Assembly (NCBI GenBank): GCA_032718475.1 | Contig: JAUCBJ010002200.1 | Coordinates: 17,970 to 81,969, forward strand | Length of the DNA stretch: 64,000 bases | Source: Nemertoderma westbladi | Lineage: Eukaryota > Animalia > Xenacoelomorpha | Direction: 5' to 3' | Shown: piece after piece, positions 1 through 62,254 of the stretch | Position numbering within the stretch: the stretch's first letter is position 1 | Layout: each line of letters starts with the position of its first letter | Program-made: the position numbers and the translations under genes | Notes under the pieces: model-generated | Told to the model about the DNA's origin: nothing | What the model saw: only the letters and a program-made list of their open reading frames with translations | Databases searched by the model: none

Positions 1-1599
1 CCCTCCAGTAATACAACTGTACCAACCTGTACCAAGCTCCTCCAGTAATACAACTACCAACCTGTACCAAGCTCCTCCAGTAATACAACTGTACCAACCT
101 GTACCAAGCTCCTCCAGTAATACAACTGTACCAACCTGTACCAAGCTCCTCCAGTAATACAACTGTACCAACCTGTACCAAGCCCCTCCAGTAATACAAC
201 TGTACCAACCTGTACCAAGCTCCTCCAGTAATACAACTGTACCAACCTGTACCAAGCTCCTTCAGTAATACAACTGTACCAACCTGTACCAAGCTCCTCC
301 AGTAATACAACTGTACCAACCTGTACCAAGCCCCTCCATTAATACAACTGTACCAAGCTCCTCCAGTAATACAACTGTACCAACCTGTACCAAGCTCCTC
401 CAGTAATACAACTGTACCAACCTGTACCAAGCCCCTCCAGTAATACAACTGTACCAACCTGTACCAAGCTCCTCCAGTAATACAACTGTATCAACCTGTA
501 CCAAGCTCCTCCAGTAATACAACTGTACCAACCTGTACCAAGCTCCTCCAGTAATACAACTGTACCAACCTGTACCAAGCTCCTCCAGTAATACAACTGT
601 ACCAACCTGTACCAAGCCCCTCCAGTAATACAACTGTACCAACCTGTACCAAGCTCCTCCAGTAATACAACTGTATCAACCTGTACCAAGCTCCTCCAGT
701 AATACAACTGTACCAACCTGTACCAAGCTCCTCCAGTAATACAACTGTACCAACCTGTACCAAGCTCCTCCAGTAATACAACTGTACCAACCTGTACCAA
801 GCTCCTCCAGTAATACAACTGTACCAACCTGTACCAAGCCCCTCCAGTAATACAACTGTACCAACCTGTACCAAGCTCCTCCAGTAATACAACTGTACCA
901 ACCAGTACCAAGCTCCTCCAGTAATACAACTGTACCAACCTGTACCAAGCTCCTCCAGTAATACAACTGTACCAACCTGTACCAAGCTCCTCCAGTAATA
1001 CAACTGTACCAACCTGTACCAAGCTCCTCCAGTAATACAACTGTACCAACCTGTACCAAGCTCCTCCAGTAATACAACTGTACCAACCTGTACCAAGCCC
1101 CTCCAGTAATACAACTGTACCAACCTGTACCAAGCTCCTCCAGTAATACAACTGTACCAACCTGTACCAAGCTCCTCCAGTAATACACCTGTACCAACTT
1201 GTACCAAGCCCCTCCAGTAATACAACTGTACCAACCTGTACCAAGCTCCTCCAGTAATACAACTGTACCAACCTGTACCAAGCTCCTCCATTAATACAAA
1301 TGTATCAACCTGTACCAAGCCCCTCCATTAATACAACTGTACCAACCTGTACCATCCCCTCCATTAATACAACTGTACCAACCTGTACCAAGCCCCTCCA
1401 GTAATACAACTGTACCACCCTGTACTAAGCTACTCCATTAATACAAATGTATCAACCTGTACCAAGCCCCTCCATTAATACAACTGTACCAAGCTCCTCA
1501 ATTAATACAAATGTATCACCCTGTACCAAGCCCCTCCATTAATACAACTGTACCAAGCTCCTCCAGTAATACAACTGTACCAACCTGTACCAAGCTCCT
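1..1599. repeat. 37-bp tandem satellite (left part, runs off window edge)
   Basis: Unit ctcctccagtaatacaactgtaccaacctgtaccaag repeated with variants; interrupted at 1600 by LTR element E1. Confidence 0.99.
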
Positions 1600-2777
1600 T
1601 GTTCGCGCTTTCAGACCTTTGGCAGTTTAACCCGCCAAATTAAAATGTCTTCTAGATATTAAATCGCTTTTTAGCCTATGACAAGTATTTGATTCACTAC
1701 ACTAGTCGAAACCAATCTGTGCGCGATCATTCACCCGCTGGATATTCCCGGGAGATTGGGTTCGACGGTTTAATTTTATTGCTATGTAAGCCTAATGTAT
1801 TATTCGACTGACAGTATTATATAATCTCTGACAATATTATTCACCTTAGGGAATATTAACAGTTCCTTTAGGACGTGGCGCTTTATTTATATAAACAGAG
1901 TTATGACTTAAACTACTCACAACGATATGGCTTAATTATAATTCACATATATGGCGCATTCTTTAGGAAATGCTTCTTTAACAGACTCACTCGTACACAA
2001 TGCTGCACAATACTGCACACTAATCTGCCAATCTTCACTGATTTTAGTCACATATAAAAGGAACACAGACTGACTCATGTAGGGTCTATCAAATAACATT
2101 AGATTCACTTCAAACCACTTTAACATAAGTCACAATCGTTATAGGTAACCTTTCTCTCTTACCTTCGGTATATCAAGAATATTGGGTTTTCGGGGTTATT
2201 TCTCGTTATTCCAATATAATAATTCATCAACAAATATAATGAATAACCGACAACAAATAGCAGTATACAGTATTGATTGAGCAGGTAATTTTTAGCAGTG
2301 AGATATTCAAGTGATTAAAAGCCAGTTAAAGGATATATGTCCTTATAATTAAACCTACTAGTGTTGAGCTAAAAAGCAGAAAGCACAAAACACTAAAAAG
2401 CCGTTCTTTCGTGGCTTTGAAAAACTCGTGACTACTACTCTATACGAGGATACCAACTACCCTTATTCCACGAAGCTCCCGTTCAACACAGAGAAAGAGC
2501 AGTGAGATAGGAAAATTTCAGTTCAGTAGCTCTGTGATAGGTCAAAATCAAGGCTAACTCAAATTCTATTGGGAGATACAAAAACAAGGCTATGACGCAA
2601 CCTTCCTAGGCTGGTTGGCCGATTAAACAGAGCCCAGATACCTGCGTACAGCAAATCAGCCAATAAGCTGGTAGCTTGCACTATTTTAGCTATAGATCCC
2701 CTTGAGAGTATTCTAGCGACCGGGGGGGAACTGGCCAGCAAAGCAAACGAACCAGTTATACCACAAAAGCTTTTACA
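1600..2777 (-). repeat. E1 3' LTR (1178 bp)
   Basis: Direct repeat of 16439-17619; on the minus strand it is preceded by the short purine-rich tract GGGAGCGG (2778-2785), also seen before the E2 3' LTR. Confidence 0.97.
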
Positions 2778-2855
2778 CCGCTCCCAGAAAATGGGATTTA
2801 AGTCTATAAAATATACAAAATCACAGTTTCTAAAATATAAAAATACTCTAAACAG

Positions 2856-4554
2856 TTAGTCTTTCTTGCGCGGACGGCGTTTACGCAGTTTTTTAAAGCT
2901 AGCAAGAGTCATTTTCTCTTTGGGGCGAGCCACTTTACGAGGAGGGCTGTAGCTCCTAGGCGAAGGGTGCAATATAATTGCATCAGAAGGTGCAGGGTTA
3001 CGATCGGTATACCGTCCATTTCGATATGCTTCTCCTCAAGCTGATTTTCCTCCGTTTGTCATGGGATACGTTCGTCCAAAACTCTCGCAGAGAATAGGGT
3101 TTTCTAAGCTTGATATCTTCTTAGAGATTCGAGATTTCCCAATCGAACTGAGATAAGGCCAATTCGTTTATCGATTGGACTTACTGTTATAACTTACGTT
3201 TATCTGAACAAACGAAGGTTTCTTTTTTGATCTTTGTAGAATAGCGTTTAATTCGTTTCGCACAACGTTCTCCTTCACCTTGATAAAGGGTTGTATCGCG
3301 TTAAACGGGGACGACCATACGGTTGGATAGTGATATTAGGTGTCCGCGTCACAATCCGGCTAGGTAAGATGGGCGGCTAGCTAGGAATCACTATCGGAGT
3401 GTTACCGATTAATTGTTAGGGTAGCACTAGATCTTTGAGCAGTGAATACAGCTCGGGAGGATCCGTCATACTAATAGGATCAAGAGTCTGAGGCCTCACT
3501 AGGGAATGAGGAGCTCTGATCGAGTATTCCGAAACTCTGATCATTGGTTTATTTAAGGATCGTCTGAGTCGAACGAGCGTAGGTGATACATTGAACAAGT
3601 TTCGCTCGAAACTCCCGTAAGTATAGCGAGTAAAACCGTGTTTAAAGCAACGTCTCCGCGGATGTTTATGTCTTTCTGTTTGTTGGTTGGGTCTTGGGCA
3701 TTCATCACAATAACACCAAAGACACACGTCTTATAGGGGAAACGCGAGTGATCCTTCTCCAGCTTACAATACTCCTCCATCCGTTCGAAGCTATCCGGTA
3801 CAACAGGTAGCGGTCGATCGGCGGTAAGATACATCATAGTGGAATAGAGCCGTTTGAGTTCCACCATGCGGTCATGATGTATACCTTGAGGATATCGAGT
3901 TTCTAGATTCTGTTGACTGGTAATATCGAGATAGGTTTCTCTCAATAATTCCAAGTATTTGGTGAAGTCGCTGCGTTTATCCGGCTCTTCAACATCTGTA
4001 CTTTCGATTCGGTTTCGCATAGAATTCTTATATTCGATTCTCGGTTTATTGTTCCGCCTCCGCTGGGTATGATATTTAAATAGAACCATTTCCCTTTTGG
4101 TGTCTATATCGTCTATATCGTGTAAATCGATAGGATGACCAGTAGTTAAGAAGGCCATATACGTACCATTACGCTGCGTATATCGAGCAGCGAATTTTCT
4201 ATAGTCCAACTCGCGCGCGAGCTGCTCTTTGGACATTGGCGGTTCGATATAACGACCATCGTCCTCCGCAGCAGTTGGACTAACGTCGCCGCGTATTAAG
4301 CTATCAACAAACGCTTGTAAAAGTAGAGTATATCGCTCCCCGATACCAAGAACATCTTCTATCAACTCCGTCATATCTGCTATATATGAGTTTATCCATA
4401 TTATAATGAGTTTATATTTAGGCGAGCGGGCGTCGCTGCCTACCCCTCTTTGCCCCCCGGACAGTGCGAGATCCTCAGCGCCGATGTGTCGCCGCCGATG
4501 TACTTTCGCCAACGATGTAGCCGCACAACGACAACGACAACCGGCACAAGTCAC
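2856..4554 (-). pseudogene. E1 ORF3 remnant (frameshifted, ~2.7-kb internal deletion)
   Basis: Matches the N-terminal part of E2 ORF3 (EDDGRYIEPPMSKEQL, LETRYPQGIHH, EEKHIEMD) joined at ~3013 directly to its C-terminal tail (LHPSPRSYSPP...KKD); frameshift near 3600. Confidence 0.9.
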
Positions 4555-6026
4555 TCGACTGTCCGTCCCAAAGGCTTAGATTTAGATGTACTTCAGGTTT
4601 TCCTTGGAGAGTTAGGTTACTTTTACGATTGCGACTAGCTACTGTAAACACACTTTAGCAGTAACATTCACCTATAAACTCACAAATACCACACAACTGG
4701 TCACAACTACGCACATTCGGGCCATTTGTCCGTTAGTCAATGCCTTCCAGAATGTCACTGTATTATTATGTATCCTTGGATACTAGTAGGGCGCTATTTA
4801 TTCCCTATGCTATTCAATGGGACAAGCTTTCTATTGTTCTTTTAACTCAATTCTAATTCTAGCGTGGTTGTTGCTATGGTGACATTATGCAAAGCTAGCG
4901 GTAGAATTAGAGTAATTCCAATGCATACAGATCTGGGATGTTATTTAATAGTATTCTTTAATAGTCAATGTTCTGTTTTATACATGACTTTATGAATTTT
5001 ATCGGCTATTGACTAGGTTTGGGAGACTTTCGCACACTCATATGCATAATAAGATAAATCTCCGCTCCCTTGATCTATTAATTAATGGAATTTTGGGAAT
5101 GTTATAAATTGCGTAAAAATGGCAATTTATTAAATTCATTAAAAGGCATGAATTTAAATTATTCCCTGAGATTTTATTATTTGATAATTAAATGGACATG
5201 TTTTGATTCTAGAACATGTCTGGGGACACAAGATCCTTAATTCTATGACAATTGTCTTTTTAAGAATATCGGTAAATGCTACGATATCTTAATTGACTAG
5301 AATTGTTGAAGGATCTGAATTTTACAGATTTTGATTTATTAGATTTGCAAATATTAAATAATTAATATTTGAGATGGGCACCGATTTATTCCAGAACTTG
5401 TCTGGGGACGTTAACCACTGATTCTAGAATTTGTCTTTCAAGTATATCGGTGGGTGCCGCGATATCTTAATCGACTAGAATTACAGATGGTCAAAGGGTT
5501 TAACAGATTTATTTTGCGTTATACGCTACTGTTAAAGGGACATCACGCTACTATATGTATTATTTAATATACGGTATGAGAGCAATATCGCACGAAGCAA
5601 TGTCAGTGTGAAGAGGCAAGTCGTTTCCAAGGTCTACCCAGAGCTTGGCTTAGCCGAGACACGAGGATCTGAACTTTGCATTCCTAATACTCTGCCTACC
5701 AATAACACTTAAATATAGTAGTGGCTTTATTGTACTTTAATAAGTACGGACATTTCATCTTACTGTAGTTACGTATTTATAATATAATACGGACAGTAAG
5801 GAAAGAGAAAAAATAATTATTTCTTCGCCGTCTCACTAAATATAATATAAGTAATTACGTACGTAATAAACACGAATATATTGCTCTATTCTACAAAATA
5901 ATCGCTAAATAATATTCTACTAAATTAAATAAAACGATTATAATAAAATTACATAGTAATACATACATAAATATAAAAATAATAAAAATATAAAATAATA
6001 GAGTCACACGCCCACTCCGAACGATA

Positions 6027-9000
6027 TTAAGTTGGGGAGTCCCTAGATGTCGGTTGGATTAGGGAAGTGGTCGTGGGAAGAGTTTCTTGCCTTCCATAGT
6101 TTCCGGAGAGCTCTCTGTCTCTTTCCAGTAAACATAAACGTCCCACCGGGCGATTGAGATGTTGAGTCTCAAAGACTATCCCTGGTTTCTTAAAGTTACG
6201 TCGCATGACGACGAGTTCTACGGATCGCACCAAACCATCGCTCGAGATATGAGTCTCGATGATACGTCCTGTTTGCCATCGCTTACGTGGGAGATCGGGG
6301 TCCACAATAAGCACCATGTCTCCAGCGCTGACGTTTTCTTGCTGCGCAAACCACTTAGTTCGAAGTTGTAGAGTGGGCAGGTAATGTTTCTCGAAATGGT
6401 CAGCGAAACGACGGGATAGCAACTGCATAAGTTGCCAGGTTCGACGGCAGTACTCGTCTCCGTCTGTGATCTCCGATCGTGGGAGCATGGCTACGGGTTT
6501 CTTCAGTAGAAAGTGCGCGGGTGTTAGCGCTTCCAGGGAATCAGGACTTGAAGAGACTGGCATAAGCGGTCTTTCGTTGAGATAAGCGGCGATTTCCTCC
6601 ATTAACGTCCGCAATAGTTCGTCGGTGAGATAAGCGCGACAAGGCACAATAAAGTGGAACGCAGTCTTCACGCTCCTAATCAATCTCTCCCAACTTCCTC
6701 CCCACCAAGGGGCGTCGGCGGCGTTGAAGGTCCAGCTAGACGCTGTTATCCTTAGCTGATCGTCCACCTGTCTTTTGTTCCAGTCCTTTACGTAAGCTTG
6801 AATTTCGTTGTTGGCGCCAATGAAGTTCGTTCCCTTATCCGATCTCATCGTGTTACTGGTTCCGAAACGAGCGATCTGTCGTCGTAAACTCAACACGAAG
6901 CTGTTGGTGGATAGATCGTTTACCATATCGAGATGGATAGCTCTACAAGTCATACAAACGAAGATGACACACCATCTCTTGACTATAGTCCGGGCACGAT
7001 ATACTTCAATAGGGCCAAATAAATCCACACCGGTATTAGTAAAGGGTGGTTCATAGAAGCTTACTCTTTCCCTAGGTAATTCTGCCTCTCGCTGTGTTAA
7101 AGGCCTACTGAATGCTTTCCTACAGGGTATGCAGTTCCTAAGAACTTGGTTCAGAGCCCTACGGGGTTTATAAAAATAGTAGCGAGTTCGAATTTCGCTC
7201 AGAACTCGTTCTCTACCAGCATGGTACAGTTTGCTATGAACATCTACAATTATCTTGATTTGTATGTCAAGATTTCTAATGAGGATGGGAAACTTAGTGT
7301 CAAAGGATAATGGGGCGTTGGTCAGTCTACCTCCAACACGTATTAACCCATCTATCATGGTACTAGAGAAGCGATCCCTTAAGCGCATCTGTGGATTTCT
7401 TAATAACAGGAAATACTTATCGGAATCCTCATAGCATTGTAGGAGTCTCAGCATCTGTTTGTTGGTTTCATCATGCTCCTGGTAGCTGATCTTCTCCTTT
7501 AGAAACCTGTCGGATACCTTGTATTGGGGAAGATCTTTAACAACATGGACTCGTGCAGATGTTGATGGAGCATCATCACTATGGGTCTTTGTCCCGGAGT
7601 AACGATGATGAAAACATCGTTTTAGATAGGTGACAGCTTTACAGAGCCGATTCCAGGAACTGTAGTGACGTATCGCTCTCTGCAAGAGAGGTGAGAGTCC
7701 TTGCGAAATATCTGGTATTCCAGATTTCCAATCCTTGTCACGGATTTCCAAGACTTCTTTAGTCGTGGCAGTGGGTTTCTGATCCAAAGCATCATCTCCG
7801 GAAGTAAATAATACAGATAGATCAACCGCAGGCTTAAACAACTTCGATTTACTCGCTCGAGTTTTGGGTTTAACTTTCTCCGCTCCCTTGGCCTGTCTGA
7901 TCTCTGCTGTTGTGAGATGGGGTGGCCATTCTTCTTCTTCTCTGTAGAGAAAGTCAGGTCCTCCTAACCATTCGGGAGTATTTACCAATTCCTTTGGAGT
8001 CGCTCCCCGGGAAGCGATGTCTGCTGGGTTAATCGTTCCGGGGCAATGTCTCCATTGGTCCATCGTCGTGCGACTAAGTATGATGGCTACCCTGTTGGTA
8101 ACGAAGACGCTGAACTGACAGACTTCATTGGTTATATACTCTAACACGAGTAAAGCGTCGGTCCAATAGACAGTTTTCTCTAATGTATAGTCAATCTGTT
8201 CGGTTACATTCCGGCCGATGGCTGTAGCGTATAGAGCCGCTTTTAACTCCGCTCGAGGAACTTTCAACTTGTTGTTGATTAATGCCTTAGAAGTAACCAA
8301 GGCGACTTTGATTCCATCCGGAGTTTCCACTCTTAGGTAGGCTACTATACCTATTCCCATATCGCTGGCGTCTCCAAACACACGGAGTTGATAGGAATAC
8401 GTAGGGAGAACATGACCAAAATATGAACGGGAAATTATAAAATCCTCGATAGCCGGCAGAGAATCTTCCCATTTCATCCACTTCTTCAATAATTCTCCCT
8501 TAAGTGGATCGTCCCATGAGTGGTTTTCAAGCCACATTTGTTGTACCAAACTACGAGCAATCAATATAACTGGGCTAATAAATCCCAATGGATCGAAATA
8601 AGTGCTCAGTATACTTAAGCAAATCCGTTTGGTTCGAACTAGATTATCTCGCTGTTTTAGCTGGAAAAACAGGATATCTCGCTCTGTGTCCCATTTCAAG
8701 CCGAGTGTCTTGGTTTCTGGCAGATCATCTTTGATCAAATCGAGATCTTTCGCTCCTCGATCTTCCGCAGGGATCGACTCCAGAAACTCACGGGAGTTGC
8801 TGGTGAATTTCGTTAATCGAAACCCACCTCTTTTTAAGCACTCTACCGTTCCTTTAGCGACCTCAATGGCTTCCTCAACTGATGGGAGGGACTTCAGATT
8901 GTCGTCCATGTATATGTCTCTCTTGATGTTGTCGATCACTTCCTTAGAGAATGCCTCTCGGTTGTCCTCTGCAGTAGTACGCACTACCGAACAGGCGTTG

Positions 9001-12000
9001 GAAGGGCTTGAGATTATCCCAAAGGCCTGGATGGTCATCCAGTACTCCACCGGTTTCTGGTTGAGGTCTCCTTCGGGCCACCACAGAAATCGTAGACTAT
9101 CTCGATCCCTATCTAACACCTTGACTTGTAAGAACATGCCTTCTATATCGGAGGCGAAAGCAATCGAATATTGTCTCAATCTTAAAAGAATCCCCAACAA
9201 AGATTGAAGCAAGTTGGGTCCGGGTAACAATTCAGAGTTAAGGGATTGACCCATGTAAAGAGCGGAGCCATCAAACACTACTCTCACTTCGTGTGGCTTA
9301 CCGGGTTTAGGAACGTAATGGTGAGTTAAGTAATACGTTCTTTCAGTCACAGATGTTTCTTCCGGTACTCTCTCCGCGTATCCCTTACTAATAAATTTTT
9401 CCAGCTGTGTTTGATACATTGCTTTAGCTGAAGAATTAGCCGTAAGGCGTCAATGGAGTTGCGCGATTCTTTTTTCCACCAAAGGTCTGTTATTGATGAA
9501 CTTCGGTTCTTTCTTGCGGAAAGGTAGACCGACTTCATACCTACCTTGATCTTTGAGGAAACGTGTAGTTGTCTCTTGGATCTGCTTGGCCCTTTCCTCT
9601 TCCACCGACAAGGCTTTATCGTAGGAATTGGGCTCTACCGCCTCTTGCGTAAAGAATCGTACGGCATGTTCATCCCGAATCTTGGCATTATGACGCTCAA
9701 TGACGTCATTTAACTCGTCGTTATAAGCTTCTCGTTCAGATGGATAGAGAAGTTGACATAAGTTCACTTGGTTTTGCCAAGCCTCGTTTTCCTTAAGGAG
9801 ATCGATGGTATTCTCCTCATCAAAAAGCTGGTGAACGTCGTCATTATCTGAGGAGTATGGAATTCCCTCAGTTGAGTTGTCTCCCTCACTGGTATCATCT
9901 TCCCATTCACTCACCTGGCATACGCTCTCTGGCGGTAGTCTTTCTCTGAGTGTTCTACGGGAAGGGCCAGTAAAGTACCAACCTACTCTAGTTCTTACCG
10001 CATAGGTCTGTAGTGGCTGCGGTTGAGCAGGCCGTTTCTCTAATGTCTCCAGCGCCTCATGCGCGTTTTGGCCGATGAGTATTTGCACTCCAGGATAATC
10101 AGTCTGGAATCGAGGTATGTTAAGATGTTGGATGCTCTCATCCTCGTCCCAATTATATAGGTCTGCTTGAGTAGTAGCGAAGTTCTTTATAGCCACCATT
10201 TTCACTGACCTTATGCTATGTTCTCCTAGTTCGTCTTGTGGGGTGGACAACGCGCCTACATAATAATCAGCTGTTATTGTAGATTTCCAAACTTGCATAA
10301 TGCCTGACATGTTGAGCTTAGTTTGGAACTTGGGTTGTCCAGCAAATATATCTTCGGCTAGCTCTTTGTCGATGAATGTTCCTGTACTACCGGAGTCAAG
10401 GAGGGCGTTCACTACATAACTCCTCTCAGGTCCGTGAACCCTTACTTGCACCACAGGAAACTCTCGGATCCCTACATTGGAAGATGGCTCTTTCCAAGAT
10501 GGTTGTCGCTCAGAAGTAGTTAGAGTAAAGTCGTTATCTGTATCTTTTTCATATGTGAGTGCTCGATACACTGCGGTATTTATCATGTAACAGGATTCGT
10601 TTTCGTCGGAGAACTCGTCTGTATAGAATCCTTCCATCTCAGATTGATCAGTGTCGTTCACATCACTGAATTGGACATGTAGCTCGGAATCACTCACCTG
10701 ATTCGGACTATTTCGATCGAATTCAGCGTGCAACAAGATATGATGTTTCGCACCACACTTTGCACACCTTATGTCAGAGAAACAGGTTCGCCGTTGGTGT
10801 CCTTGTCTGAGGCAATTATAACATAACCGCTTATCCCACATGACTTCGCGTCTCTCCGTTAATGATTTCTTTAGAAATTCATCACACCTATTCAAATGGT
10901 GGATCCCGTCACACAGCGCACATTTTGGTTTGATGTTACTTACCTTATTCTGAGTCACATTGTGTACACTTGCCTTTTCTTCGGGCTTTCTCACCTGAAT
11001 TCTCTTGGGAGACGTGGGAGGAGTTTTTCTTACCTGTTCTCTCCTTTCATTTGCTCGAGACTTGAATTTACTTACCTGATCTTTAGGCATTTTATTGACA
11101 TAATAAGATCTATCAGTGTCTTTCCCGCTATCTTCTCCTTGGGAAGTCTGGCTTTCGCCGTCGTCTGTATAACACACTGGTGTTACCTTTCTCCTAGAGA
11201 CGGGTTTTTCACTTACCTTGTTTTCCGGTGTCTTCTCTCGGGACTGCTTGAGGAGTTGCAATTTCACTTCTCCATCCAAGAATGACATGAGATCAGCCAT
11301 GGTAGGGTCTCGTCGTTGTTGTTCCATCATATATAGTACTTTCTTATCCCAGCGTGTGCCTACCCCACCTTTCGGTAAAGTAGAAGCCACAGCTCCAATG
11401 ACCATAGAACTTTGGTATTCATGAGACTTACCTAACCAATCTAATTGTCTACAGATCTCTTGAATCTCATCGGAAAACTCTATTATCCCACTGCTGATGA
11501 ACTTTCTGGGCGCTACTAATTTTGCATATAAATACTTAGCGATATTATTCTTATTACCATACCTGATGTTTAGTGTGTCCCAAACTTGTCTTAATCCGTC
11601 TGGATGTCCAATAAACTTTAACGCCATTAACTTGGGAGATCCTTCCAAGCACTCGATGAGGTATCTAAGTTTTTCTCCATTAGATAGTACAGAGTTCTGT
11701 ATGTTATCTTTGTAATATTCATTAAAAGGTAACCATTTCATCTCATCTCCATTGAACTTGACGATCTCTCCCACCTTTACCGCTTGCCGGGCTTCGGTTC
11801 TAGCCATTTGACGCGTAAAACTTTCTTGGGCCATCGTGTTATTTAATATCGAGTTATCGGTATATAAATTTCTCGGATTATGATCAGTTCTATAGGGATT
11901 GTCATTATCAACAGGTCTATAATTACCCTTAATAGGGTTCACTATAGGAGTTTCTACTTCGCTAGCAGTATATATGCGTGTAGGCTCCACACCTTGCGCA

Positions 12001-14177
12001 TGAGATACTTCAGACCTAACAGGTTGACACATTGTTACAGAGGGTGGCGGTATACCCTTTTGAGTATTTACTAATTTATCGCGTTCTAGCGCGATACTTT
12101 GCTGCACTTCTTGCAACTCTAGCCTACTTTCCCTTACTGTGCCCTTGAATTGCTGGACAGTCTCCTGCATCTGCCCGAGCAGGATATCCATCCCCCGCCG
12201 TCTCTCGTCCACCCATTCGACCGCCGAAGCGGGAGTCGCCAACGTTGTAGCGGGCGGACGAGGGACAACGGGCGACAAATTATGAATATTTCGCTCGGGG
12301 TCCAGGACCTGAACTGTCCCCTGGGCAGTTCTACTGGGCACAGGTAGCTTAGTGCTATGCAGAGGGAATTTAGAGGTAGTTTCAGGGAGCACAGGTGTGT
12401 CTATCACCGAAGGGGTGATTTCAAGAACAGGCCTAATTATTTCAGGCTCATCTACTATAGTAGGGAGTCTTTCTATTTTAATTATTTGGTCTGTGGGCTC
12501 TGTACTACCTAAGTTGGTGTTATTTAGTTGCCTTCTAACAGCTGGAGGCAAATCAGGCAATTTCTGACGGTGGAATGTTCTTTTACGTCTGCTTAGACGA
12601 GATCTATTTCCTTTGCCTTCAGTATCGGTGGTATCGCCTTCCTCAGATGATGTATATCCCTGTCTTTTGGGAGTAGATCGATTCATCATCTGCATATTAC
12701 TAGCTGTTAACTGTTTATTTATGCAGTCTTGATTCTCTTGAATGTTTTCCAATTCTAATTGGGTGGTTTCTTCAGTCGCTCTCCGTTCGGCTTCTGCCAC
12801 TGCCTCTGCGGCCTTTCTCTCAGCCTCGGCCGCCTTTGCTTCTGCCGCTGCCGCTGCCGCTGCTGCTGCTGCTTTTGCCTCTGCCTCTGCCACTGCCGCT
12901 GCCGCTGCCGCTTTTGCCTCTGCCGCTGCCGCTTTTGCCTCTGCTGCTGCCTCTGCCGCTGCCGCTTTTCTTTCTACTTCTGCAGCTACCACTGCTGCTT
13001 TCTTTCTGTCTTCTATACGTTTTTTCTTTACTTGTTCTTCTTGGGCTCGTGTGATGCGGAGTTGTTCATCAAATTCAGCCTGGTTCGCAGCCCTCATTTC
13101 CACATCGATGGCATCCAACACAAGCTTGGTTCCTTCACTATTAGGGTTAAGTCCCTCTAACCTTCTCCTCAACTCGTCATCACCTAAAAAACGTTGATAG
13201 TCTGACAGATAGATGTCAATGGCATCCCTCTTATGCGGTTTCTCTGCCGTCGCTTCACTTTCCACTTGGGAAAAAGTAGCGTCTGTTGATTCTCCATGGG
13301 TTGATCGCTCCTCCAGCTGAGCTTTCCACTGAGCTGTTCCTTGAACCTGGAGATTCACCCTTTGAAACCAAGTCTTTACGGCGACTTGCAACGACGTGTC
13401 TTGTCTTCGTTTAGAAGCCTCCTCAAAGGCCGATAATATTAGCCTGATTCGTAGAATTCTTTCTCTCACTTGATAAAGCAGTTGTCCCTGCTCTTGAGGT
13501 CCTTGTGGTTGTTGAAACAGTTGTCCTTTTACTCGCTCCATAGAGCTGAAGAATCCCTGTGCGTATCCGGCTGCGGACCTCTTCCACACAGCGGGATCGA
13601 TGGTTTCCTTGGCTACTCCCATCCGGTGTATGTCTTCCCAGGCAGCTTCTGATAAATCAAACGGGAGTCCGGGTCCGGGGAAGTTCCATTGCGACTCGAC
13701 CATGGACTTCAGTTCTTCCCTTGTGTATCCAGCATAACTATCTCTAGTTGAACGCTGGCTTCTCGCCCAATCGATCTGGTGTTCTTCCACAGCGATCAAT
13801 AACCTGGTGAGTACGGCTGCAGGAAGGATGAGAAGGGGATCCGTATAAACCGCATCCGTCATCTTTGCTCCGCGCTCGGGTGTCAGCTCTACAGTATCTT
13901 CACTACTGGAGCTGTTGGGCCGTTGAGAAGTAAGTTCTTGGCTCGCGGGTTGTTGCTGTTCTGCTGCTTCTTGGTCCCGCTTGACCTGAGCTCGAGTGCC
14001 TATGATAGACCTACGATGTTGGACCAGCCTAGGTTCTGTTATTACTACTGGAGGGATGACCTTCCTCACAGTGGGAGGTGAACTGAACTTACGACTAGAT
14101 GGTTCTACGCCTCTATCTGAGTCACAGATAGTCACATCTAATATACTGTCTGACAGGTTCTGCTTAGTATCAGACAT
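6027..14177 (-). CDS. BEL/Pao Gag-Pol polyprotein (~2716 codons) with one in-frame TGA at 9450-9452
   Basis: ORFs 9450-14177 and 6027-9419 are in the same frame (AQLH*RLTANSSAKAMYQ). Three BEL-type Zn knuckles (CALCDGIHHLNRC, CYNCLRQGHQRRTC, CAKCGAKHH), protease LLDSGS, RT YMDD, RNase H FGDASD, integrase HHCC/DLFGP/SDKGTNF/WERLIRSVK. Confidence 0.96.
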
Positions 14178-15529
14178 GTTTATGTATACAGTTGAATGTC
14201 TACTGCTGTATCACAGTCTGAGCAAGTCTAGTAACTCAGTATTAACTGCTAGCCTAGTAATTAATTACCGGTACTGCTACTCAGTGTAGCGTGATATATA
14301 ATATATTAGAATACCAGTATGCTTATAGTATATATAACTATTATTACAGACTAGGTTTATCACCGAATACCGGTATAATTTTAGCACAAATATATATAAA
14401 TATATAATAGGCCTATCGTGGATACCGGTATGCAGTTTACACTTATAGTGTATATATATAAGTATAATTACAGACTAGAATTAATTACAGAATACCGGTA
14501 TGATTTCAACCTAAAATTTATAGAAATAAATATAATAAGCCTATTGTAAATACCGGTATGTCAATTATTTTAGAATAATTGAATTTCTGAATTTTAAGGG
14601 TTACTTGGTTACTTTAACTTACTTTATTACCGTTATTTAAGCAGTAGTCCAACTGATATTGAGACCTAATGGTTTTATGGTAGGCCTACTATTTATAAAT
14701 CGTTAGATTTGATTTATAATATATATATACCCGTTTTAATGGGTTTGTCAATGTTTGAAATAAATGTTATTATTTCTGGGGAGTAATCACTACACAAAGC
14801 GGTGCGCTTTCAGTGAAGTGTTACTTATAGGACACTAAAACAAATAATACTAATTTACCTAAGTTACTTAATACTACAAATTACGTACAATTCGGGTGAG
14901 ATTACAATCTCTAAATAAACACAAAAATTTACAAAACGCAAAATACGAATTTTTTAGGGTAATTTTACAAGAAGTCTACAAACCAGCCTAACAAAGGGTT
15001 AGAATTCTGGTTATTACAACGGACAGGGTACTACGGTATTTGAAAATAATACTTAGTAGTAAATACACTGCGTTGTCCAGATAGAAAAATACCACCGCCT
15101 GACGACCTATAGCCGTATCGCTATAGGTTCTACGTTATGTATCACGGAGTGTTCCTACCTAGAAGTTAATAGAGCTAATCGAACGTGCCTATCAACCACT
15201 TTACAACACAAATATAATGCCTACACTAATTACTCTCGGAAAGCACTGTACACTAAACCCTAAATTAGGTACGAGTACTTGTACAACAGATAATCAGTAG
15301 TTAAATATACTTGAACAGCTAAAAGAACCACGGCATCTGCTGGAGTGACCGATGCACAAAATCACCAGTCTTTACCTACGCCAAGCAGCCCGTGTAGTAC
15401 CGGGGTTAATTTAACTATAGCGGTATGTATAACAAACACAATTACTGTAGGAACAAACTTGGGGAATGAATGTTGCGAATAATCGCATAAACTCTGAATA
15501 ATAAATATTACGCTACGCGTACAAACTAC

Positions 15530-16080
15530 TCAAACAAAATGCAGACCGAACACTGACAGACTACTATCAAGCCTAAACAAACTACGGTATATGCAGACTC
15601 CGAAATAATTAGGTAGTATGCGTTCTAACCCAGTAGTACGACTTATTCTTTAATTGGGGGTTTACCTTACAGCATTCGCTGCCCCTACTTCCTAACCGTT
15701 CTTTATCGGACAAGTGATCTACACACGCTGCAATCCGTTCAGACCTAATAACAGCCAGACAACTATCCAGCCTACAAATTATCTAAATAAAATTATACGC
15801 TACCCGTACAGACTTACACAAACAAAGTACAGACTAAACGATGGCAGACTACTCTCAAGCCTAAATAAACTACAGGACATGCAGACTCCGAAATGATTAG
15901 GGAGTATGCGTTCTAACCCAGTAGTACGACTTATTCTTTAGTTGGGGGTTTACCTTACAGCATTCGCTGCCCCTACTTCCTAACCGTACTTAATCGGACA
16001 GGTGATCTACACACACTGCAATTCGTTCGGACTTAACAGCAATCAGACAACAGCTCAGCCTACAAATCGTCTGTACAATC
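15530..16080. repeat. ~290-bp tandem duplication in the E1 5' leader
   Basis: tatgcgttctaacccagtagtacgacttattcttta...cagcattcgctgcccctacttcctaaccgt occurs at ~15617 and ~15906; single copy in the E2 leader. Confidence 0.85.
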
Positions 16081-16426
16081 TGATCAGGTTTACACGCCTT
16101 CTGTTCAATACTGGCCTACAAATAAATAAAACTTGACAGAAATAAGTAAACCATATAAAGGAATAAGGGGTGATCAATCCCTAATCCCTCAACAGCCTAC
16201 CGGTATGCAACAATCAAATCGAATAATACTAGTGTACTTATACGGAAGTACCGGTTAGGACAGCTAGGCCTAAGGACCTACAGAAGTACCGGTTCTGGCA
16301 GTTGGACCTACGGACCTACGGCAGTACCGGTTCTGGCAGTTGGGCCTACTGACCTACAGATGTACCGGTTCAGGTTTACCGGTTGACCGGTACTTTCAAC
16401 TTTATTGCTTACTGCAATAAAGAAGC

Positions 16427-16438
16427 TATATCCTTTAA
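16427..16438 (-). promoter_or_regulatory. E1 non-tRNA primer-binding site TTAAAGGATATA
   Basis: Abuts the CA end of the 5' LTR; no TGG; exact complement of LTR 12-mer at 17168-17179 (also 2326-2337). Confidence 0.75.
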
Positions 16439-17619
16439 TGTTCGCGCTTTCAGACCTTTGGCAGTTTAACCCGCCAAATTAAGATGTCTTCTAGATATTA
16501 AATCGCTTTTTAGCCTATGACAAGTATTTGATTCACTACACTAGTCGAAACCAATCTGTGCGCGATCATTCACCCGCTGGATATTCCCGGGAGATTGGGT
16601 TCGACGGTTTAATTTTATTGCTATGTAAGCCTAATGTATTATTCGACTGACAGTATTATATAATCTCTGACAATATTATTCACCTTAGGGAATATTAACA
16701 GTTCCTTTAGGACGTGGCGCTTTATTTATATAAACAGAGTTATGACTTAAACTACTCACAACGATATGGCTTAATTATAATTCACATATAATATGGCGCA
16801 TTCTTTAGGAAATGCTTCTTTAACAGACTCACTCGTACACAATGCTGCACAATACTGCACACTAATCTGCCAATCTTCACTGATTTTAGTCACATATAAA
16901 AGGAACACAGACTGACTCATGTAGGGTCTATCAAATAACATTAGATTCACTTCAAACCACTTTAACATAAGTCACAATCGTTATAGGTAACCTTTCTCTC
17001 TTACCTTCGGTATATCAAGAATATTGGGTTTTCGGGGTTATTTCTCGTTATTCCAATATAATAATTCATCAACAAATATAATGAATAACCGACAACAAAT
17101 AGCAGTATACAGTATTGATTGAGCAGGTAATTTTTAGCAGTGAGATATTCAAGTGATTAAAAGCCAGTTAAAGGATATATGTCCTTATAATTAAACCTAC
17201 TAGTGTTGAGCTAAAAAGCAGAAAGCACAAAACACTAAAAAGCCGTTCTTTCGTGGCTTTGAAAAACTCGTGACTACTACTCTATACGAGGATACCAACT
17301 ACCCTTATTCCACGAAGCTCCCGTTCAACACAGAGAAAGAGCAGTGAGATAGGAAAATTTCAGTTCAGTAGCTCTGTGATAGGTCAAAATCAAGGCTAAC
17401 TCAAATTCTATTGGGAGATACAAAAACAAGGCTATGACGCAACCTTCCTAGGCTGGTTGGCCGATTAAACAGAGCCCAGATACCTGCGTACAGCAAATCA
17501 GCCAATAAGCTGGTAGCTTGCACTATTTTAGCTATAGATCCCCTTGAGAGTATTCTAGCGACCGGGGGGGAACTGGCCAGCAAAGCAAACGAACCAGTTA
17601 TACCACAAAAGCTTTTACA
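16439..17619 (-). repeat. E1 5' LTR (1181 bp)
   Basis: Direct repeat of 1600-2777 with TG...CA ends. Confidence 0.97.
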
Positions 17620-20600
17620 CTCCTCCAGTAATACAACTGTACCAACCTGTACCAAGCTCCTCCAGTAATACAACTGTACCAACCTGTACCAAGCTCCTCC
17701 AGTAATACAACTGTACCAACCTGTACCAAGCCCCTCCAGTAAGACAACTGTACCAACCTGTACCAAGCTCCTCCAGTAATACAACTGTATCAACCTGTAC
17801 CAAGCTCCTCCAGTAATACAACTGTACCAACCTGTACCAAGCTCCTCCAGTAATACAACTGTACCAACCTGTACCAAGCTCCTCCAGTAATACAACTGTA
17901 CCAACCTGTACCAAGCTCCTCCAGTAATACAACTGTACCAACCTGTACCAAGCTCCTCCAGTAATACAACTGTACCAACCTGTACCAAGCCCCTCCAGTA
18001 TTACAACTGTACCAACCTGTACCAAGCTCCTCCAGTAATACAACTGTACCAACCTGTACCAAGCTCCTCCAGTAATACAACTGTACCAACCTGTACCAAG
18101 CTCCTCCAGTAATACAACTGTACCAACCTGTACCAAGCCCCTCCATTAATACAACTGTACCAACCTGTACCATCCCCTCCATTAATACAACTGTACCAAC
18201 CTGTACCAAGCCCCTCCAGTAATACAACTGTACCAACCTTTACCAAGCTCCTCCATTAATACAAATGTATCAACCTGTACCAAGCCCCTCCATTAATACA
18301 ACTGTACCAACCTGTACCATCCCCTCCATTAATACAACTGTACCAACCTGTACCAAGCCCCTCCAGTAATACAACTGTACCAACCTGTACCAAGCTCCTC
18401 CATTAATACAAATGTATCAACCTGTACCAAGCCCCTCCATTAATACAACTATACCAAGCTCCTCCAGTAATACAACTGTACCAACCTGTACCAAGCTCCT
18501 CCAGTAATACAACTGTACCAACCTGTACCAAGCTCCTCCAGTAATACAACTACCAACCTGTACCAAGCTCCTCCAGTAATACAACTGTACCAACCTGTAC
18601 CAAGCTCCTCCAGTAATACAACTGTACCAACCTGTACCAAGCTCCTCCAGTAATACAACTGTACCAACCTGTACCAAGCCCCTCCAGTAATACAACTGTA
18701 CCAACCTGTACCAAGCTCCTCCAGTAATACAACTGTACCAACCTGTACCAAGCTCCTCCAGTAATACAACTGTACCAACCTGTACCAAGCTCCTCCAGTA
18801 ATACAACTGTACCAACCTGTACCAAGCCCCTCCATTAATACAACTGTACCAAGCTCCTCCAGTAATACAACTGTACCAACCTGTACCAAGCTCCTCCAGT
18901 AATACAACTGTACCAACCTGTACCAAGCTCCTCCAGTAATACAACTACCAACCTGTACCAAGCTCCTCCAGTAATACAACTGTACCAACCTGTACCAAGC
19001 TCCTCCAGTAATACAACTGTACCAACCTGTACCAAGCCCCTCCATTAATACAACTGTACCAAGCTCCTCCAGTAATACAACTGTACCAACCTGTACCAAG
19101 CTCCTCCAGTAATACAACTGTACCAACCTGTACCAAGCTCCTCCAGTAATACAACTACCAACCTGTACCAAGCTCCTCCAGTAATACAACTGTACCAACC
19201 TGTACCAAGCTCCTCCAGTAATACAACTGTACCAACCTGTACCAAGCTCCTCCAGTAATACAACTGTACCAACCTGTACCAAGCTCCTCCAGTAATACAA
19301 CTGTACCAACCTGTACCAAGCCCCTCCAGTAATACAACTGTACCAACCTGTACCAAGCTCCTCCAGTAATACAACTGTATCAACCTGTACCAAGCTCCTC
19401 CAGTAATACAACTGTACCAACCTGTACCAAGCTCCTCCAGTAATACAACTGTACCAACCTGTACCAAGCTCCTCCAGTAATACAACTGTACCAACCTGTA
19501 CCAAGCTCCTCCAGTAATACAACTGTACCAACCTGTACCAAGCTCCTCCAGTAATACAACTGTACCAACCTGTACCAAGCTCCTCCAGTAATACAACTGT
19601 ACCAACCTGTACCAAGCTCCTCCAGTAATACAACTGTACCAACCTGTACCAAGCTCCTCCAGTAATACAACTGTACCAACCTGTACCAAGCTCCTCCAGT
19701 AATACAACTGTACCAACCTGTACCAAGCTCCTCCAGTAATACAACTGTACCAACCTGTACCAAGCTCCTCCAGTAATACAACTGTACCAACCTGTACCAA
19801 GCTCCTCCAGTAATACAACTGTACCAACCTGTACCAAGCTCCTCCAGTAATACAACTGTACCAACCTGTACCAAGCTCCTCCAGTAATACAACTGTACCA
19901 ACCTGTACCAAGCTCCTCCAGTAATACAACTGTACCAACCTGTACCAAGCCCCTCCAGTAATACAACTGTACCAACCTGTACCAAGCTCCTCCAGTAATA
20001 CAACTGTACCAACCTGTACCAAGCTCCTCCAGTAATACAACTGTACCAACTTGTACCAAGCCCCTCCAGTAATACAACTGTACCAACCTGTACCAAGCTC
20101 CTCCAGTAATACAACTGTACCAACCTGTACCAAGCTCCTCCATTAATACAAATGTATCAACCTGTACCAAGCCCCTCCATTAATACAACTGTACCAACCT
20201 GTACCATCCCCTCCATTAATACAACTGTACCAACCTGTACCAATCCCCTCCAGTAATACAACTGTACCACCCTGTACTAAGCTACTCCATTAATACAAAT
20301 GTATCAACCTGTACCAAGCCCCTCCATTAATACAACTGTACCAAGCTCCTCAATTAATACAAATGTATCAACCTGTACCAAGCCCCTCCATTAATACAAC
20401 TGTACCAAGCTCCTCCAGTAATACAACTGTACCAACCTGTACCAAGCTCCTCCAGTAATACAACTGTACCAACCTGTACCAAGCTCCTCCAGTAATACAA
20501 CTACCAACCTGTACCAAGCTCCTCCAGTAATACAACTGTACCAACCTGTACCAAGCTCCTCCAGTAATACAACTGTACCAACCTGTACCAAGCTCCTCCA

Positions 20601-22692
20601 GTAATACAACTGTACCAACCTGTACCAAGCCCCTCCAGTAATACAACTGTACCAACCTGTACCAAGCTCCTCCAGTAATACAACTGTATCAACCTGTACC
20701 AAGCTCCTCCAGTAATACAACTGTACCAACCTGTACCAAGCTCCTCCAGTAATACAACTGTACCAACCTGTACCAAGCTCCTCCAGTAATACAACTGTAC
20801 CAACCTGTACCAAGCTCCTCCAGTAATACAACTGTACCAACCTGTACCAAGCTCCTCCAGTAATACAACTGTACCAACCTGTACCAAGCTCCTCCAGTAA
20901 TACAACTGTACCAACCTGTACCAAGCTCCTCCAGTAATACAACTGTACCAACTTGTACCAAGCTCCTCCAGTAATACAACTGTACCAACCTGTACCAAGC
21001 CCCTCCAGTAATACAACTGTACCAACCTGTACCAAGCTCCTCCAGTAATACAACTGTACCAACCTGTACCAAGCTCCTCCAGTAATACAACTGTACCAAC
21101 TTGTACCAAGCCCCTCCAGTAATACAACTGTACCAACCTGTACCAAGCTCCTCCAGTAATACAACTGTACCAACCTGTACCAAGCTCCTCCATTAATACA
21201 AATGTATCAACCTGTACCAAGCCCCTCCATTAATACAACTGTACCAACCTGTACCATCCCCTCCATTAATACAACTGTACCAACCTGTACCAAGCCCCTC
21301 CAGTAATACAACTGTACCACCCTGTACTAAGCTACTCCATTAATACAAATGTATCAACCTGTACCAAGCCCCTCCATTAATACAACTGTACCAAGCTCCT
21401 CAATTAATACAAATGTATCAACCTGTACCAAGCCCCTCCATTAATACAACTGTACCAACCTGTACCATCCCCTCCATTAATACAACTGTACCAACCTGTA
21501 CCAAGCCCCTCCAGTAATACAACTGTACCAACCTGTACCACGCCCCTCCATTAATACAACTGTACCAACCTGTACCATCCCCTCCATTATACAACTGTAC
21601 CAACCTGTACCAAGCCCCTCCAGTAATACAACTGTACCAAGCTCCTCCATTAATACAAATGTATCAACCTGTACCAAGCCCCTCCATTAATACAACTGTA
21701 CCAAGCTCCTCCATTAATACAAATGTATCAACCTGTACCAAGCCCCTCCATTAATACAACTGTACCAACCTGTACCATCCCCTCCAGTAATACAACTGTA
21801 CCAACCTGTACCAAGCTCCTCCATTACTACAACTGTACCAACCTGTACCAAGCCCCTCCAGTAATACAACTGTACCAACCTGTACCAAGCCCCTCCATTA
21901 ATACAACTGTACCAAGCTCCTCCATTAATACAAATGTATCAACCTGTACCAAGCCCCTCCATTAATACAAATGTATCAACCTGTACCAAGCCCCTCCATT
22001 AATACAACTGTACCAACCTGTACCATCCCCTCCATTAATACAACTGTACCAACCTGTACCAAGCCCCTCCAGTAATACAACTGTACCAACCTGTACCAAG
22101 CTCCTCCATTAATACAAATGTATCAACCTGTACCAAGCCCATCCATTAATACAACTGTACCAACCTGTACCATCCCCTCCATTAATACAACTGTACCAAC
22201 CTGTACCAAGCCCCTCCAGTAATACAACTGTACCAACCTGTACCAAGCTCCTCCATTAATACAAATGTATCAACCTGTACCAAGCCCCTCCATTAATACA
22301 ACTGTACCAAGCTCCTCCAGTAATACAACTGTACCAACCTGTACCAAGCTCCTCCAGTAATACAACTGTACCAACCTGTACCAAGCTCCTCCAGTAATAC
22401 AACTACCAACCTGTACCAAGCTCCTCCAGTAATACAACTGTACCAACCTGTACCAAGCTCCTCCAGTAATACAACTGTACCAACCTGTACCAAGCTCCTC
22501 CAGTAATACAACTGTACCAACCTGTACCAAGCCCCTCCAGTAATACAACTGTACCAACCTGTACCAAGCTCCTCCAGTAATACAACTGTAGCAACCTGTA
22601 CCAAGCTCCTCCAGTAATACAACTGTACCAACCTGTACCAAGCTCCTCCAGTAATACAACTGTACCAACCTGTACCAAGCCCCTCCAGTAAT
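17620..22692. repeat. 37-bp tandem satellite (right part), ending inside POLR3F exon
   Basis: Same unit with shorter deletion variants and higher-order blocks; the last copy is the POLR3F coding sequence ITGGAWY plus donor. Confidence 0.99.
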
Positions 22693-22854
22693 GCTACTAT
22701 CCGGGGTTAGATTGTATAACATATAAAGCTTCCTTTTGCTCTGATTTACGCTCGTAACGGCCTTTATTAACTTTTTACTCTCGAGATTTTTAAGCATCTT
22801 ATTTAGAGCCGTTAAAGTAAGTCCGTGACCGGTAGCATTTCTTATATTCCGAAC
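22670..22854 (-). CDS. POLR3F: RNA polymerase III subunit RPC6/RPC34, third coding exon
   Basis: VRNIRNATGHGLTLTALNKMLKNLESKKLIKAVTSVNQSKRKLYMLYNLTPDSSITGGAWY closely resembles RPC34 (LKNLESKKLIKAV...YMLYNL.PD.S.TGGAWY); acceptor ctctag, donor AG|GTTGGT (phase 2). Confidence 0.93.
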
Positions 22855-23365
22855 CTAGAGGGAAATATAAATTATTATATTCCGGATCTAGAGGGAAATA
22901 TAAATTATTATATTCCGGATCTACAATAGATCCGGCCCTGTGGGAGGTGGGGGAGGGGGGGGGGGGGGGGGGAGGGGTGGATACAATTAATTATAATTAT
23001 AAATATGGATATTATATTATAATTAAAGAGGATTTTTAATTCTGGAGCTAGATAAGTCAATAACTTGACGGGATGGCCTTAACTAATTATTGATGTAATA
23101 TCGTATAAACAATAGCCATCATAATAATACGAATCTAAATTATATCACCTATGAAACTGCAAACGTCCGAAAGACAAAGTCAAAATCTGAATAGACTACA
23201 TTTGTTTATTAAAGTGTAGGCCTACGTGGAGTAATTTGATTGGTTTACAGTATAGGACAATAACTAGGAATAGAATAGAGGTCTTGTGATAACTTTAATA
23301 TCATTATTAAATAATTAACTATAAACTAAATATAAAAATAACTAAATAATTAAACATAAACTTAC

Positions 23366-23509
23366 CCAAATACCTTTATCACCAGCCTCCTCTATTATAC
23401 CGTAAACCAACTCCTCAGCTCCCCCGCTCTCTAATTCCGAAGTAATCGCCACATTACGTTCCACTTTACAACGGTAGAACGGTTCCGTACTGCCTCGAGC
23501 GCGGAGGAT
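23366..23509 (-). CDS. POLR3F: POLR3F second coding exon
   Basis: ILRARGSTEPFYRCK...EELVYGIIEEAGDKGIW (RPC34 E.LVY.IIE.AG.KGIW); ttttag acceptor, gtaagt donor, 144 nt phase 0. Confidence 0.92.
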
Positions 23510-24183: not shown

Positions 24184-24405
24184 TTCTAATTTGCTGCAAG
24201 TAAGTAGTTGGTTGACAGCAGCGAGTCTGTCTCCGGGACTCCCCCATTCAACTTCCGCCCAAAGTGACGAGTCGGAAATGCTGTCGTGTTTCTGGCAAAC
24301 TTCCAGGATTCTCTCGACCAGCAGGTCGTTCATATTCGGGATCTGGGCGACATTGCTCGGTCCGGCTTCCGATAAGTTACCGGTTTTCGAGCTACTGGAA
24401 TTCAT
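24184..24405 (-). CDS. POLR3F: POLR3F first coding exon
   Basis: ATG at 24405; ERILEVCQKH...RLAAVNQLLTCSKLE fits RPC34 first winged helix; GAA|GTTTGT donor joins the next exon in frame. Confidence 0.82.
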
Positions 24406-42267: not shown

Positions 42268-42279
42268 TTAATAGATTTA
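42268..42279 (+). promoter_or_regulatory. E2 non-tRNA primer-binding site TTAATAGATTTA
   Basis: Abuts the 5' LTR end; exact complement of LTR 12-mer TAAATCTATTAA at 41493-41504. Confidence 0.75.
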
Positions 42280-62250: not shown

Positions 62251-62254
62251 TGAT

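Follow-up and report, generated by a model that had tools for sequence, protein, structure and literature searches.

A minisatellite reiterating the exon 3 splice donor of an expressed POLR3F gene in Nemertoderma westbladi

The POLR3F (Rpc34) gene present in a window of 64,000 nt from Nemertoderma westbladi (the whole stretch of DNA that was analysed) is expressed, and its main mRNA is spliced from the first of a long series of identical donors reiterated within intron 3. These donors belong to a minisatellite which very probably represents the amplified exon 3/intron 3 junction of this gene, with the later donor copies being silent decoys that are passed over during splicing.

The gene lies on the reverse strand, and its first three exons are found within the window:

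24184..24405, reverse strand: POLR3F/Rpc34 exon 1, coding part (piece of the spliced contig, translation)
23366..23509, reverse strand: POLR3F exon 2, 144 nt (contig piece and joints, tblastn hits)
22670..22854, reverse strand: POLR3F exon 3, 185 nt (PF05158, E 4.8e-21; contig piece ending at 22670)

In the translation, the first in-frame ATG is at 24405 and the second at 24333, and the transcript contig, whose exon 1 piece covers 24184-24500 with no other letters, extends beyond 24500; its joint between exons 1 and 2 skips 674 nt with GT..AG ends. Exon 2 gives a weak PF05158 match (E 0.0015), and exon 3, which is 72% identical to its best homologues, ends in GGAWY and two bases of a Ser codon, followed by the authentic donor CAG|GTTGGT at 22670/22669. 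The best matches of the neighbouring Nudix protein are 30-48% identical, and neither protein points to a close relative; among 26 of the 133 listed ORFs that lie outside the Bel/Pao element described below, a Pfam scan recovered no further domain. No exon-4-type hit or motif is present within the 64-kb window, and intron 3 exceeds 22,669 nt, extending past the window edge, as was anticipated in a preliminary description of this DNA, which gave more than 22.6 kb.

The use of the first donor is seen in run X4, which was read as RNA because it holds a contig that lacks both introns at GT..AG ends. This contig (record 25; 1,330 nt, depth 209.5) aligns in three pieces with no other letters and no gaps, and matches exons 1-3 without difference until its last piece ends at 22670, i.e., at the first donor. 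Once reverse-complemented, its loose end completes the Ser codon and then reads A-D-G-F-E-S-E-F-V, in register with the motif F-E-x-E-F-V that follows GGAWY at the same spacing in 119 of 120 homologues, and the remaining 576 nt of the contig provide room for the 147 residues that come after the motif (the median of 38 full-length homologues). Given that the contig is spliced at the first donor and continues in frame to a conserved exon 4, POLR3F is an expressed gene, and the selection of the first donor, one of the options raised in the preliminary description, is what the main mRNA displays, in one contig from one RNA run, a format in which rare variants are lost.

The repeats begin inside exon 3 and are divided into two arms by a retrotransposon:

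17620..22692, reverse strand: junction minisatellite arm 1, 140.4 copies of 37 nt (TRF score 8326)
1..1599, reverse strand: junction minisatellite arm 2, 44.1 copies (TRF at 2-1599), cut by the window edge
1600..17619, reverse strand: Bel/Pao LTR retrotransposon, 16,020 nt (LTRs, TSD, gag-pol domains)

Both arms together amount to 6,672 nt and about 184-185 head-to-tail 37-nt units, a lower bound, as arm 2 runs off the window; this bears out the earlier estimate of some 6.7 kb and 180 units continuing past position 1. The unit consists of the last 23 nt of exon 3 and the first 14 nt of intron 3, in line with the composition first proposed, and unit 1 (22692-22656) overlaps exon 3 and spans the real boundary, fixed at 22670 by the spliced contig. 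Compared with the commonest unit, the copy in the exon itself carries one synonymous change (GGG vs GGA), and the commonest unit is stop-free in every sense frame, as had been observed for the consensus. Unit-length variants of 27, 35 and 36 nt are found in arm 1, while a TAA variant occurs in 49 of 185 units and the donor-less 27-nt units make up 13 of 185. Arrays of this kind yield long spurious ORFs, here of up to 576 codons.

Some 30 unit variants, many of them private, are arranged in block-duplicated order, with multi-unit blocks repeating up to 9 units (never more than 5 when the unit order was shuffled 100 times) and an 8-unit block common to arm 1 and arm 2 (21408 vs 1506). Slippage or unequal exchange at an intron boundary that already existed would have copied the junction head-to-tail, and the array would then have grown by block duplication, presumably with neutral consequences; the Bel/Pao element was later inserted into one of the units. 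Given that exon 4 starts with coding sequence unrelated to the unit, the intron was already there and was enlarged by the array. The tandem copies of an AG|GT-bearing segment are similar to those of the AGGT tandem genomic duplication model of intron gain, in which, according to passages of the source (PMC3443670), the sequence following the acceptor has to repeat that following the donor, and this origin is not supported by the start of exon 4, which is unlike the unit. Intron expansion by junction duplication, as the locus was first characterised, is a fair description, but of a phenomenon already named and published, as excerpts of the literature indicate (PMC1557585, PMC3087553).

Unit contigs, including deletion variants and a C-type variant end, occur in all three DNA runs (X1-X3; two samples, two studies), at depths that far exceed those of the flanks; this excess was not converted into a copy number, since two runs of one sample give ratios about tenfold apart. 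Exon 3 is not linked to the array by 31 or more letters in any listed DNA contig, so the position of the array rests on the assembly, and no unit-to-LTR loose end is found among the X1-X3 contigs, where short junction contigs of this type may escape placement. It is extremely unlikely that the array, its length or its placement is an assembly artefact, or that this is a pseudogene whose intact copy lies elsewhere: the lack of a bridging contig would suit an artefact, but the block-duplicated order of the variants, their presence in three DNA runs, and the clean TSD inside one unit argue against it, and the mRNA contig is both identical to the exons and the sole X4 contig placed on exon 3 at 85% likeness. 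The check for downstream exons or transcripts, proposed with the pseudogene in mind, returned a spliced transcript into exon 4, and the gene was not refuted.

The donor 9-mer CAG|GTTGGT is found in 139 identical copies in the array, including the authentic one (106 in arm 1 and 33 in arm 2), and in none of the remaining 57,328 nt of the gene strand, a distribution which does not arise by chance. The splice site is, in this manner, reiterated as identical intronic pseudo-sites, and because the sites are identical, the selection of a donor would depend on position rather than sequence. The spliceosome would commit to the exon-nearest donor and bypass the later copies, either through exon definition or through commitment in the 5'-to-3' direction during transcription, following the proposal made for human F7 intron 7. 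The intron is not packed with identical donors, as the preliminary description had it: the array makes up 29% of the 22,669 visible intron nt, and the other 16,020 nt (71%) correspond to the Bel/Pao element, which that description overlooked and which contains no donor 9-mer.

The downstream copies might also leak in a regulated manner, with donors 2-9 being used meaningfully to give either NMD substrates or extended Rpc34, which would tune the dose of this Pol III subunit. These donors are identical 9-mers, and 41 of the 125 AG|GT sites of arm 1 (authentic donor included) are in frame; a stop-free in-frame extension arises from only three of the 124 downstream sites, at +111, +222 and +294 nt, and would lengthen Rpc34 by 37, 74 or 98 residues. 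The addition of 111 nt in frame by every third donor, as initially suggested, is valid at +111 and +222, but the ladder stops within about 300 nt. As these three donors are in frame and stop-free, NMD cannot explain why they do not provide the main form. In addition, partial accounts of 6-16 and CBS (PMC1557585) and of ABCA7 (PMC5954066) record the use of the second donor, with the next one or two donors used at some level, which counts against a strict first-donor explanation. On the other hand, the assembled transcript passes through the first-donor junction as one unbroken contig, and an insert would interrupt a motif whose spacing is conserved in nearly all homologues, which makes regulated leakage improbable. 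The repeat-extended or NMD isoforms that had been envisaged are not the main form in the X4 contig, and contigs drop rare variants; the lack of an X4 contig on the intronic units at 22619-22663 is missing cover that carries no evidential weight.

The 163 AG|GT junctions of both arms, within an intron longer than 22 kb, also invite a reading in terms of recursive splicing, a further option in the preliminary description, in which the internal sites would serve as acceptor-then-donor ratchet points for the stepwise removal of the intron, with a final mRNA equal to the observed contig. Passages of the literature describe ratchet points as acceptor and donor sites placed side by side in long introns (PMC8605326). 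The array does offer AG|GT sites in a long intron, but the sequence upstream of them is the purine-rich exon end, with 5-9 pyrimidines in 20 positions vs 14 at both real acceptors, and a competing AG in this 20-nt stretch at 162 of the 163 sites. The AG of a true ratchet-point acceptor follows a pyrimidine-rich, AG-free tract, which these sites do not have. Moreover, the spacing between adjacent sites is 37 nt and units are absent from 16 kb of the intron, which makes such a ratchet exceedingly improbable here.

The opposite end of exon 3 also carries a duplication:

22842..22923, reverse strand: 33-nt tandem duplication across the intron 2/exon 3 acceptor (TRF period 33, 2.5 copies)

The decoy acceptor at 22888 is identical to the authentic one over 25 nt, and splicing to it would insert 11 codons that close with an in-frame stop. 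The RNA contig joins at the exon-proximal acceptor, 22855, and a DNA contig from run X2 ends at 22894, which is the expected break point of a k=31 contig if the duplication is present. The resolution of this duplicate to the exon-proximal site supports the interpretation of the array as an amplified junction with silent decoys.

The Bel/Pao element interrupts one repeat unit, reads in the same direction as POLR3F and is flanked by a 5-nt target-site duplication (17620-17624 and 1595-1599). It has the paired LTRs and Pao-type gag-pol domains of its class, the LTRs (16439-17619, 1,181 nt, and 1600-2777, 1,178 nt) having TG...CA ends and the domains being DUF1759 (E 3.5e-12), Peptidase_A17 (E 4.7e-35), DUF5641 (E 6.7e-20) and Integrase_H2C2 (E 5.2e-07), with the long reading frame broken by one stop at 9450-9452. 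The two LTRs differ by one substitution and one 3-nt indel over about 1,180 nt, a near-identity that points to a recent insertion, which may be polymorphic.

Each LTR also contains two AATAAA on the gene strand, which raises the possibility of a damaged allele, in which these poly(A) signals truncate the transcripts and the mRNA seen derives from insertion-free alleles. The recent insertion would be compatible with this, as would the origin of the X4 RNA in sample S3, which has no listed DNA run and whose alleles may lack the array or the retroelement. However, exons 1-3 of the assembled haplotype are intact and identical to the mRNA contig, and intronic LTR elements are frequently tolerated, all of which makes this scenario very unlikely. 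It is also very doubtful that the donors, at least 139 in number, load U1 snRNP on the nascent transcript and so shield this essential gene from premature cleavage at the LTR poly(A) signals, in which case the minisatellite would be a "telescripting" buffer that makes a long, retroelement-filled intron tolerable, and exon-proximal choice would act at both duplicated ends of one exon.

Against plain base shuffles, four array units have the more stable fold (z -5.5), but when one dinucleotide-shuffled unit was repeated as the control, the effect vanished (z -0.7 to -1.1; 37 of 300 controls as stable, for four units), and a selected hairpin was rejected. In the predicted folding, the first donor is slightly more open, with a mean unpaired value of 0.43 vs 0.18-0.39 in the next 20 identical donors, and RNA structure may contribute to the choice of the first donor.

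Given these features, the POLR3F array is likely to be a large but ordinary junction minisatellite of the "mirage" or F7-IVS7 type, a comparison of sizes which is based on main-text passages, given that supplementary data could hold larger published arrays. In the human F7 intron 7 VNTR, as set out in passages of Borensztajn et al. 2006 (PMC1557585), the first 37-bp unit spans the boundary and only the most upstream of the identical donors is used, as in POLR3F; the equal unit length is a coincidence. The F7 array comprises 5-9 units, each with 4 exonic nt, whereas POLR3F, a housekeeping gene of a non-mammalian animal with a retrotransposon within the array, has at least about 184 units with 23 exonic nt. 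The same passages also give numbers of pseudo-sites for 6-16 (25), CBS (15-20), LMNB2 (10-15) and PDGF (16-18).

The amphioxus "mirage" minisatellites (Adh3, the BflGb6/BflGb9 globins, TnC and PGBD5) leave splicing undisturbed in the text available (PMC3087553, PMC3902484), and those of the globins have 3-6 units, in contrast with the approximately 184 donor-side units and the duplication of both exon ends in POLR3F. The ABCA7 intron 18 VNTR, according to sections of two reports (PMC5954066, PMC13747324), is a kilobase-scale array starting from a splice donor, with 12-427 units and a total length of up to 10.7 kb, and provides a precedent for size, given that it has repeated donor-like sites and alleles longer than the POLR3F array. 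Its unit begins at GT without exon sequence, unlike that of POLR3F, and second-unit donor use and exon skipping have been detected, neither of which appears in the single POLR3F contig. Within the literature sampled on POLR3F, intronic tandem repeats and splicing, nothing was found beyond a fish genome report. What is distinctive here is the size of the array, the second duplication on the acceptor of the same exon, and the sense-strand LTR element in the array.

For annotators, the locus is a caution that junction arrays generate long spurious ORFs. It also puts the position-based choice of 5' splice sites to an extreme natural test: the donor of a housekeeping gene is followed by 138 identical decoys, of which three are in frame and invisible to NMD, and the acceptor of the same exon is duplicated as well. 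The finding would confirm a known behaviour rather than a new mechanism, and near-exclusive use of the first donor, if true, would extend the F7 rule to a further animal lineage and to exon-bearing units present in far more copies.

On the minus strand of the window, a 37-nt unit is repeated in tandem from 22692 down to 17620 (arm 1), the first copy overlapping the end of POLR3F exon 3 (22854-22670), which matches the Pfam domain RNA_pol_Rpc34 (E 4.8e-21) and reaches 72% identity to named RPC6/POLR3F proteins, exons 1-3 having 47-51% identity to their best homologues. The preliminary description was correct that each unit joins the last 23 nt of exon 3 to the first 14 nt of intron 3, and that the commonest unit has no stop codon in any sense frame. 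The TRF copy number is 140.4 for arm 1 and 44.1 for the second arm (2-1599), and splitting both arms into units yields approximately 185, with 83-84 of the commonest type and some 30 variants, including 27-nt units without the donor (n=13), while a TAA variant is found in 49 of the 185. The donor 9-mer CAG/GTTGGT occurs 106 times in arm 1 and 33 times in arm 2, and the rest of the window has none on the gene strand. The portrayal of the intron as packed with identical donors needs correcting: the array makes up 29% of the 22,669 nt of intron 3 in view, and a Bel/Pao element of 16,020 nt, absent from the preliminary description, lies within it.

Blocks of mixed units recur exactly within the array, up to nine units in length (no more than five in 100 shuffles of unit order), as would be expected if the array grew by unequal exchange. 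A 9-nt stretch of the exon end is visibly repeated inside the unit, suggestive of a previous slip, of smaller extent, at this junction. The junction array is a real feature, and unit contigs were obtained from all three DNA runs (two samples, two studies), one of which could be the source of the assembly; among them are variants with deletions and a variant end of the C type, which the window has as well. Given that no contig bridging exon 3 and the array was found among the DNA-run contigs listed, the placement and length of the array rest on the assembly.

The acceptor side of exon 3 is also repeated, so that both ends of this exon are duplicated.

Acceptor repeat and neighbouring genes (window positions, strand)
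22842-22923, minus: 33-nt tandem repeat of the intron 2/exon 3 acceptor (sequence repeat)
27490-28545, minus: galactosyltransferase, long single ORF (PF01762)
60628-61494, minus: NUDT6-like Nudix hydrolase, long single ORF
61511-62302, minus: DUF4504 protein, long single ORF

The repeat places a second acceptor at 22888, with 25 nt identical to the real one, and splicing there would, on translation, bring in an in-frame stop. A contig of the DNA run X2 stops at 22894, the point at which this duplication should interrupt a k=31 contig. On the gene strand, a C-rich tract of some 40 nt (22939-22985) closely precedes the duplicated acceptor and is followed by another AG at 22938. In the same gene, exon 1 (24184-24405, minus), which encodes the Rpc34 N-terminus, is unusually divergent and has no Pfam match, in contrast to the conserved exon 3, and intron 1 contains a high-copy dispersed element (23564-23941); partial matches to it number in the hundreds among contigs from all four runs compared, some with TTAGGG-like flanks. 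The NUDT6-like and DUF4504 ORFs lie on the same strand, 16 nt apart. The protein matches of POLR3F and of the NUDT6-like ORF point to an animal with no closely related annotated species.

Six public runs were found for the locus, none recorded as RNA, and four were compared over 22619-24500. One of these, X4, is read as an RNA run because its contig (1,330 nt, depth 209.5) joins three pieces, 24184-24500, 23364-23509 and 22670-22852, across introns; the 674 and 511 nt skipped between them begin with GT and end with AG, and the pieces show no other letters or gaps relative to the window. The last piece ends at 22670, the first donor (contig position 754), with 51 further reference bases offered. 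In a second comparison (22619-22860), the loose end, reverse-complemented and read by hand, completes a Ser codon and continues A-D-G-F-E-S-E-F-V, where 102 of 120 homologues have SDQDFESEFV after GGAWY and 119 of 120 have F-E-x-E-F-V at the same spacing; the remaining 576 nt of the contig have room for the expected 147 residues (median of 38 full-length homologues). Since this end is in frame and no exon 4 hit or motif was found within the window, a downstream exon exists outside it, and selection of the first donor, one of the options offered in the preliminary description, is supported by a spliced transcript that carries exon 4. The assembled mRNA uses the first donor and the exon-proximal (last) acceptor, on the evidence of one run's contigs, which drop rare forms and come from a sample whose alleles may differ from those of the window.

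Recursive splicing, for which the concept of ratchet points is described in PMC8605326, was also proposed for this intron, and would require real acceptors at the AG/GT sites. These sites (n=163) have 5-9 pyrimidines in the 20 upstream positions and a competing AG at 162 of 163, whereas both real acceptors have 14 pyrimidines and no competing AG, which makes this reading unlikely. The creation of intron 3 by AGGT duplication, a model of intron gain set out in PMC3443670, was ruled out because exon 4 does not start with the unit sequence.

As the donors are identical and the main mRNA form uses the first, the exon-proximal donor would be chosen by position, with the later copies passed over as decoys. 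The suggested in-frame extension by every third donor reaches only about 300 nt into arm 1: among its 125 AG/GT sites, those at +111, +222 and +294 nt are the only ones, besides the real donor, that are both in frame and free of stops. Surveillance alone cannot explain the result, given that these three later donors would escape NMD; the acceptor side provides weaker evidence, because NMD could hide the use of the upstream copy. Compared with a fair control, the predicted folding of the array RNA is unremarkable (z about -1), although the first of the 21 donors compared has the highest predicted openness (0.43 vs. 0.18-0.39). Most probably, the array is a junction minisatellite, likely neutral, in which splicing ignores the decoy donors. 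U1 is described as protecting against premature cleavage (PMC5499120), and it is highly improbable that the array serves as a U1-loading shield against the poly(A) signals of the LTRs.

The two arms lie 16,020 nt apart (17619-1600), and the insert between them carries a direct repeat at each end, 1,181 and 1,178 nt long. The two copies are alike except for one substitution and a 3-nt indel, have TG...CA ends, and are accompanied by a 5-nt target duplication within a satellite unit; the internal ORFs encode DUF1759, Peptidase_A17, DUF5641 and integrase zinc-binding domains. These features identify the insert as a Bel/Pao retrotransposon of very recent origin, which has the same orientation as POLR3F and whose insertion postdates the array. 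The long reading frame of this element (1600-17619, minus) is broken by one stop (9450-9452). The element also contains an additional 340-codon ORF (3553-4575), which matched nothing in Pfam and is at best weakly hydrophobic in a segment close to its end. The family is represented again at approximately 41617-57179 (plus) by an older copy, with 70-90% identity in pieces and fragmented ORFs; this copy overlaps both a 987-codon ORF (52633-55596) and the 239-codon ORF that follows, neither with a Pfam match.

No publication on the POLR3F intron 3 array locus was found in the literature search made for it, and the array belongs to a known kind of junction repeat, rather than being a new mechanism. 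In the passages cited, the 37-bp VNTR of F7 presents 5-9 identical donors, of which only the most upstream is used, 6-16, CBS, LMNB2 and PDGF are given as genes of the same type, and two pseudo-sites are used as well in 6-16 and CBS (PMC1557585). The amphioxus repeats termed "mirages" are described at both boundaries, with splicing undisturbed (PMC3087553, PMC3902484). The size of the POLR3F array has a precedent at the ABCA7 exon 18 donor, where arrays have 12-427 units (PMC5954066, PMC13747324), although the ABCA7 unit, as described there, has no exon part, whereas that of POLR3F includes 23 nt of the exon. The POLR3F array is a good test case because of its size, because exon 3 is duplicated at either end, and because a young retrotransposon lies in it on the sense strand.
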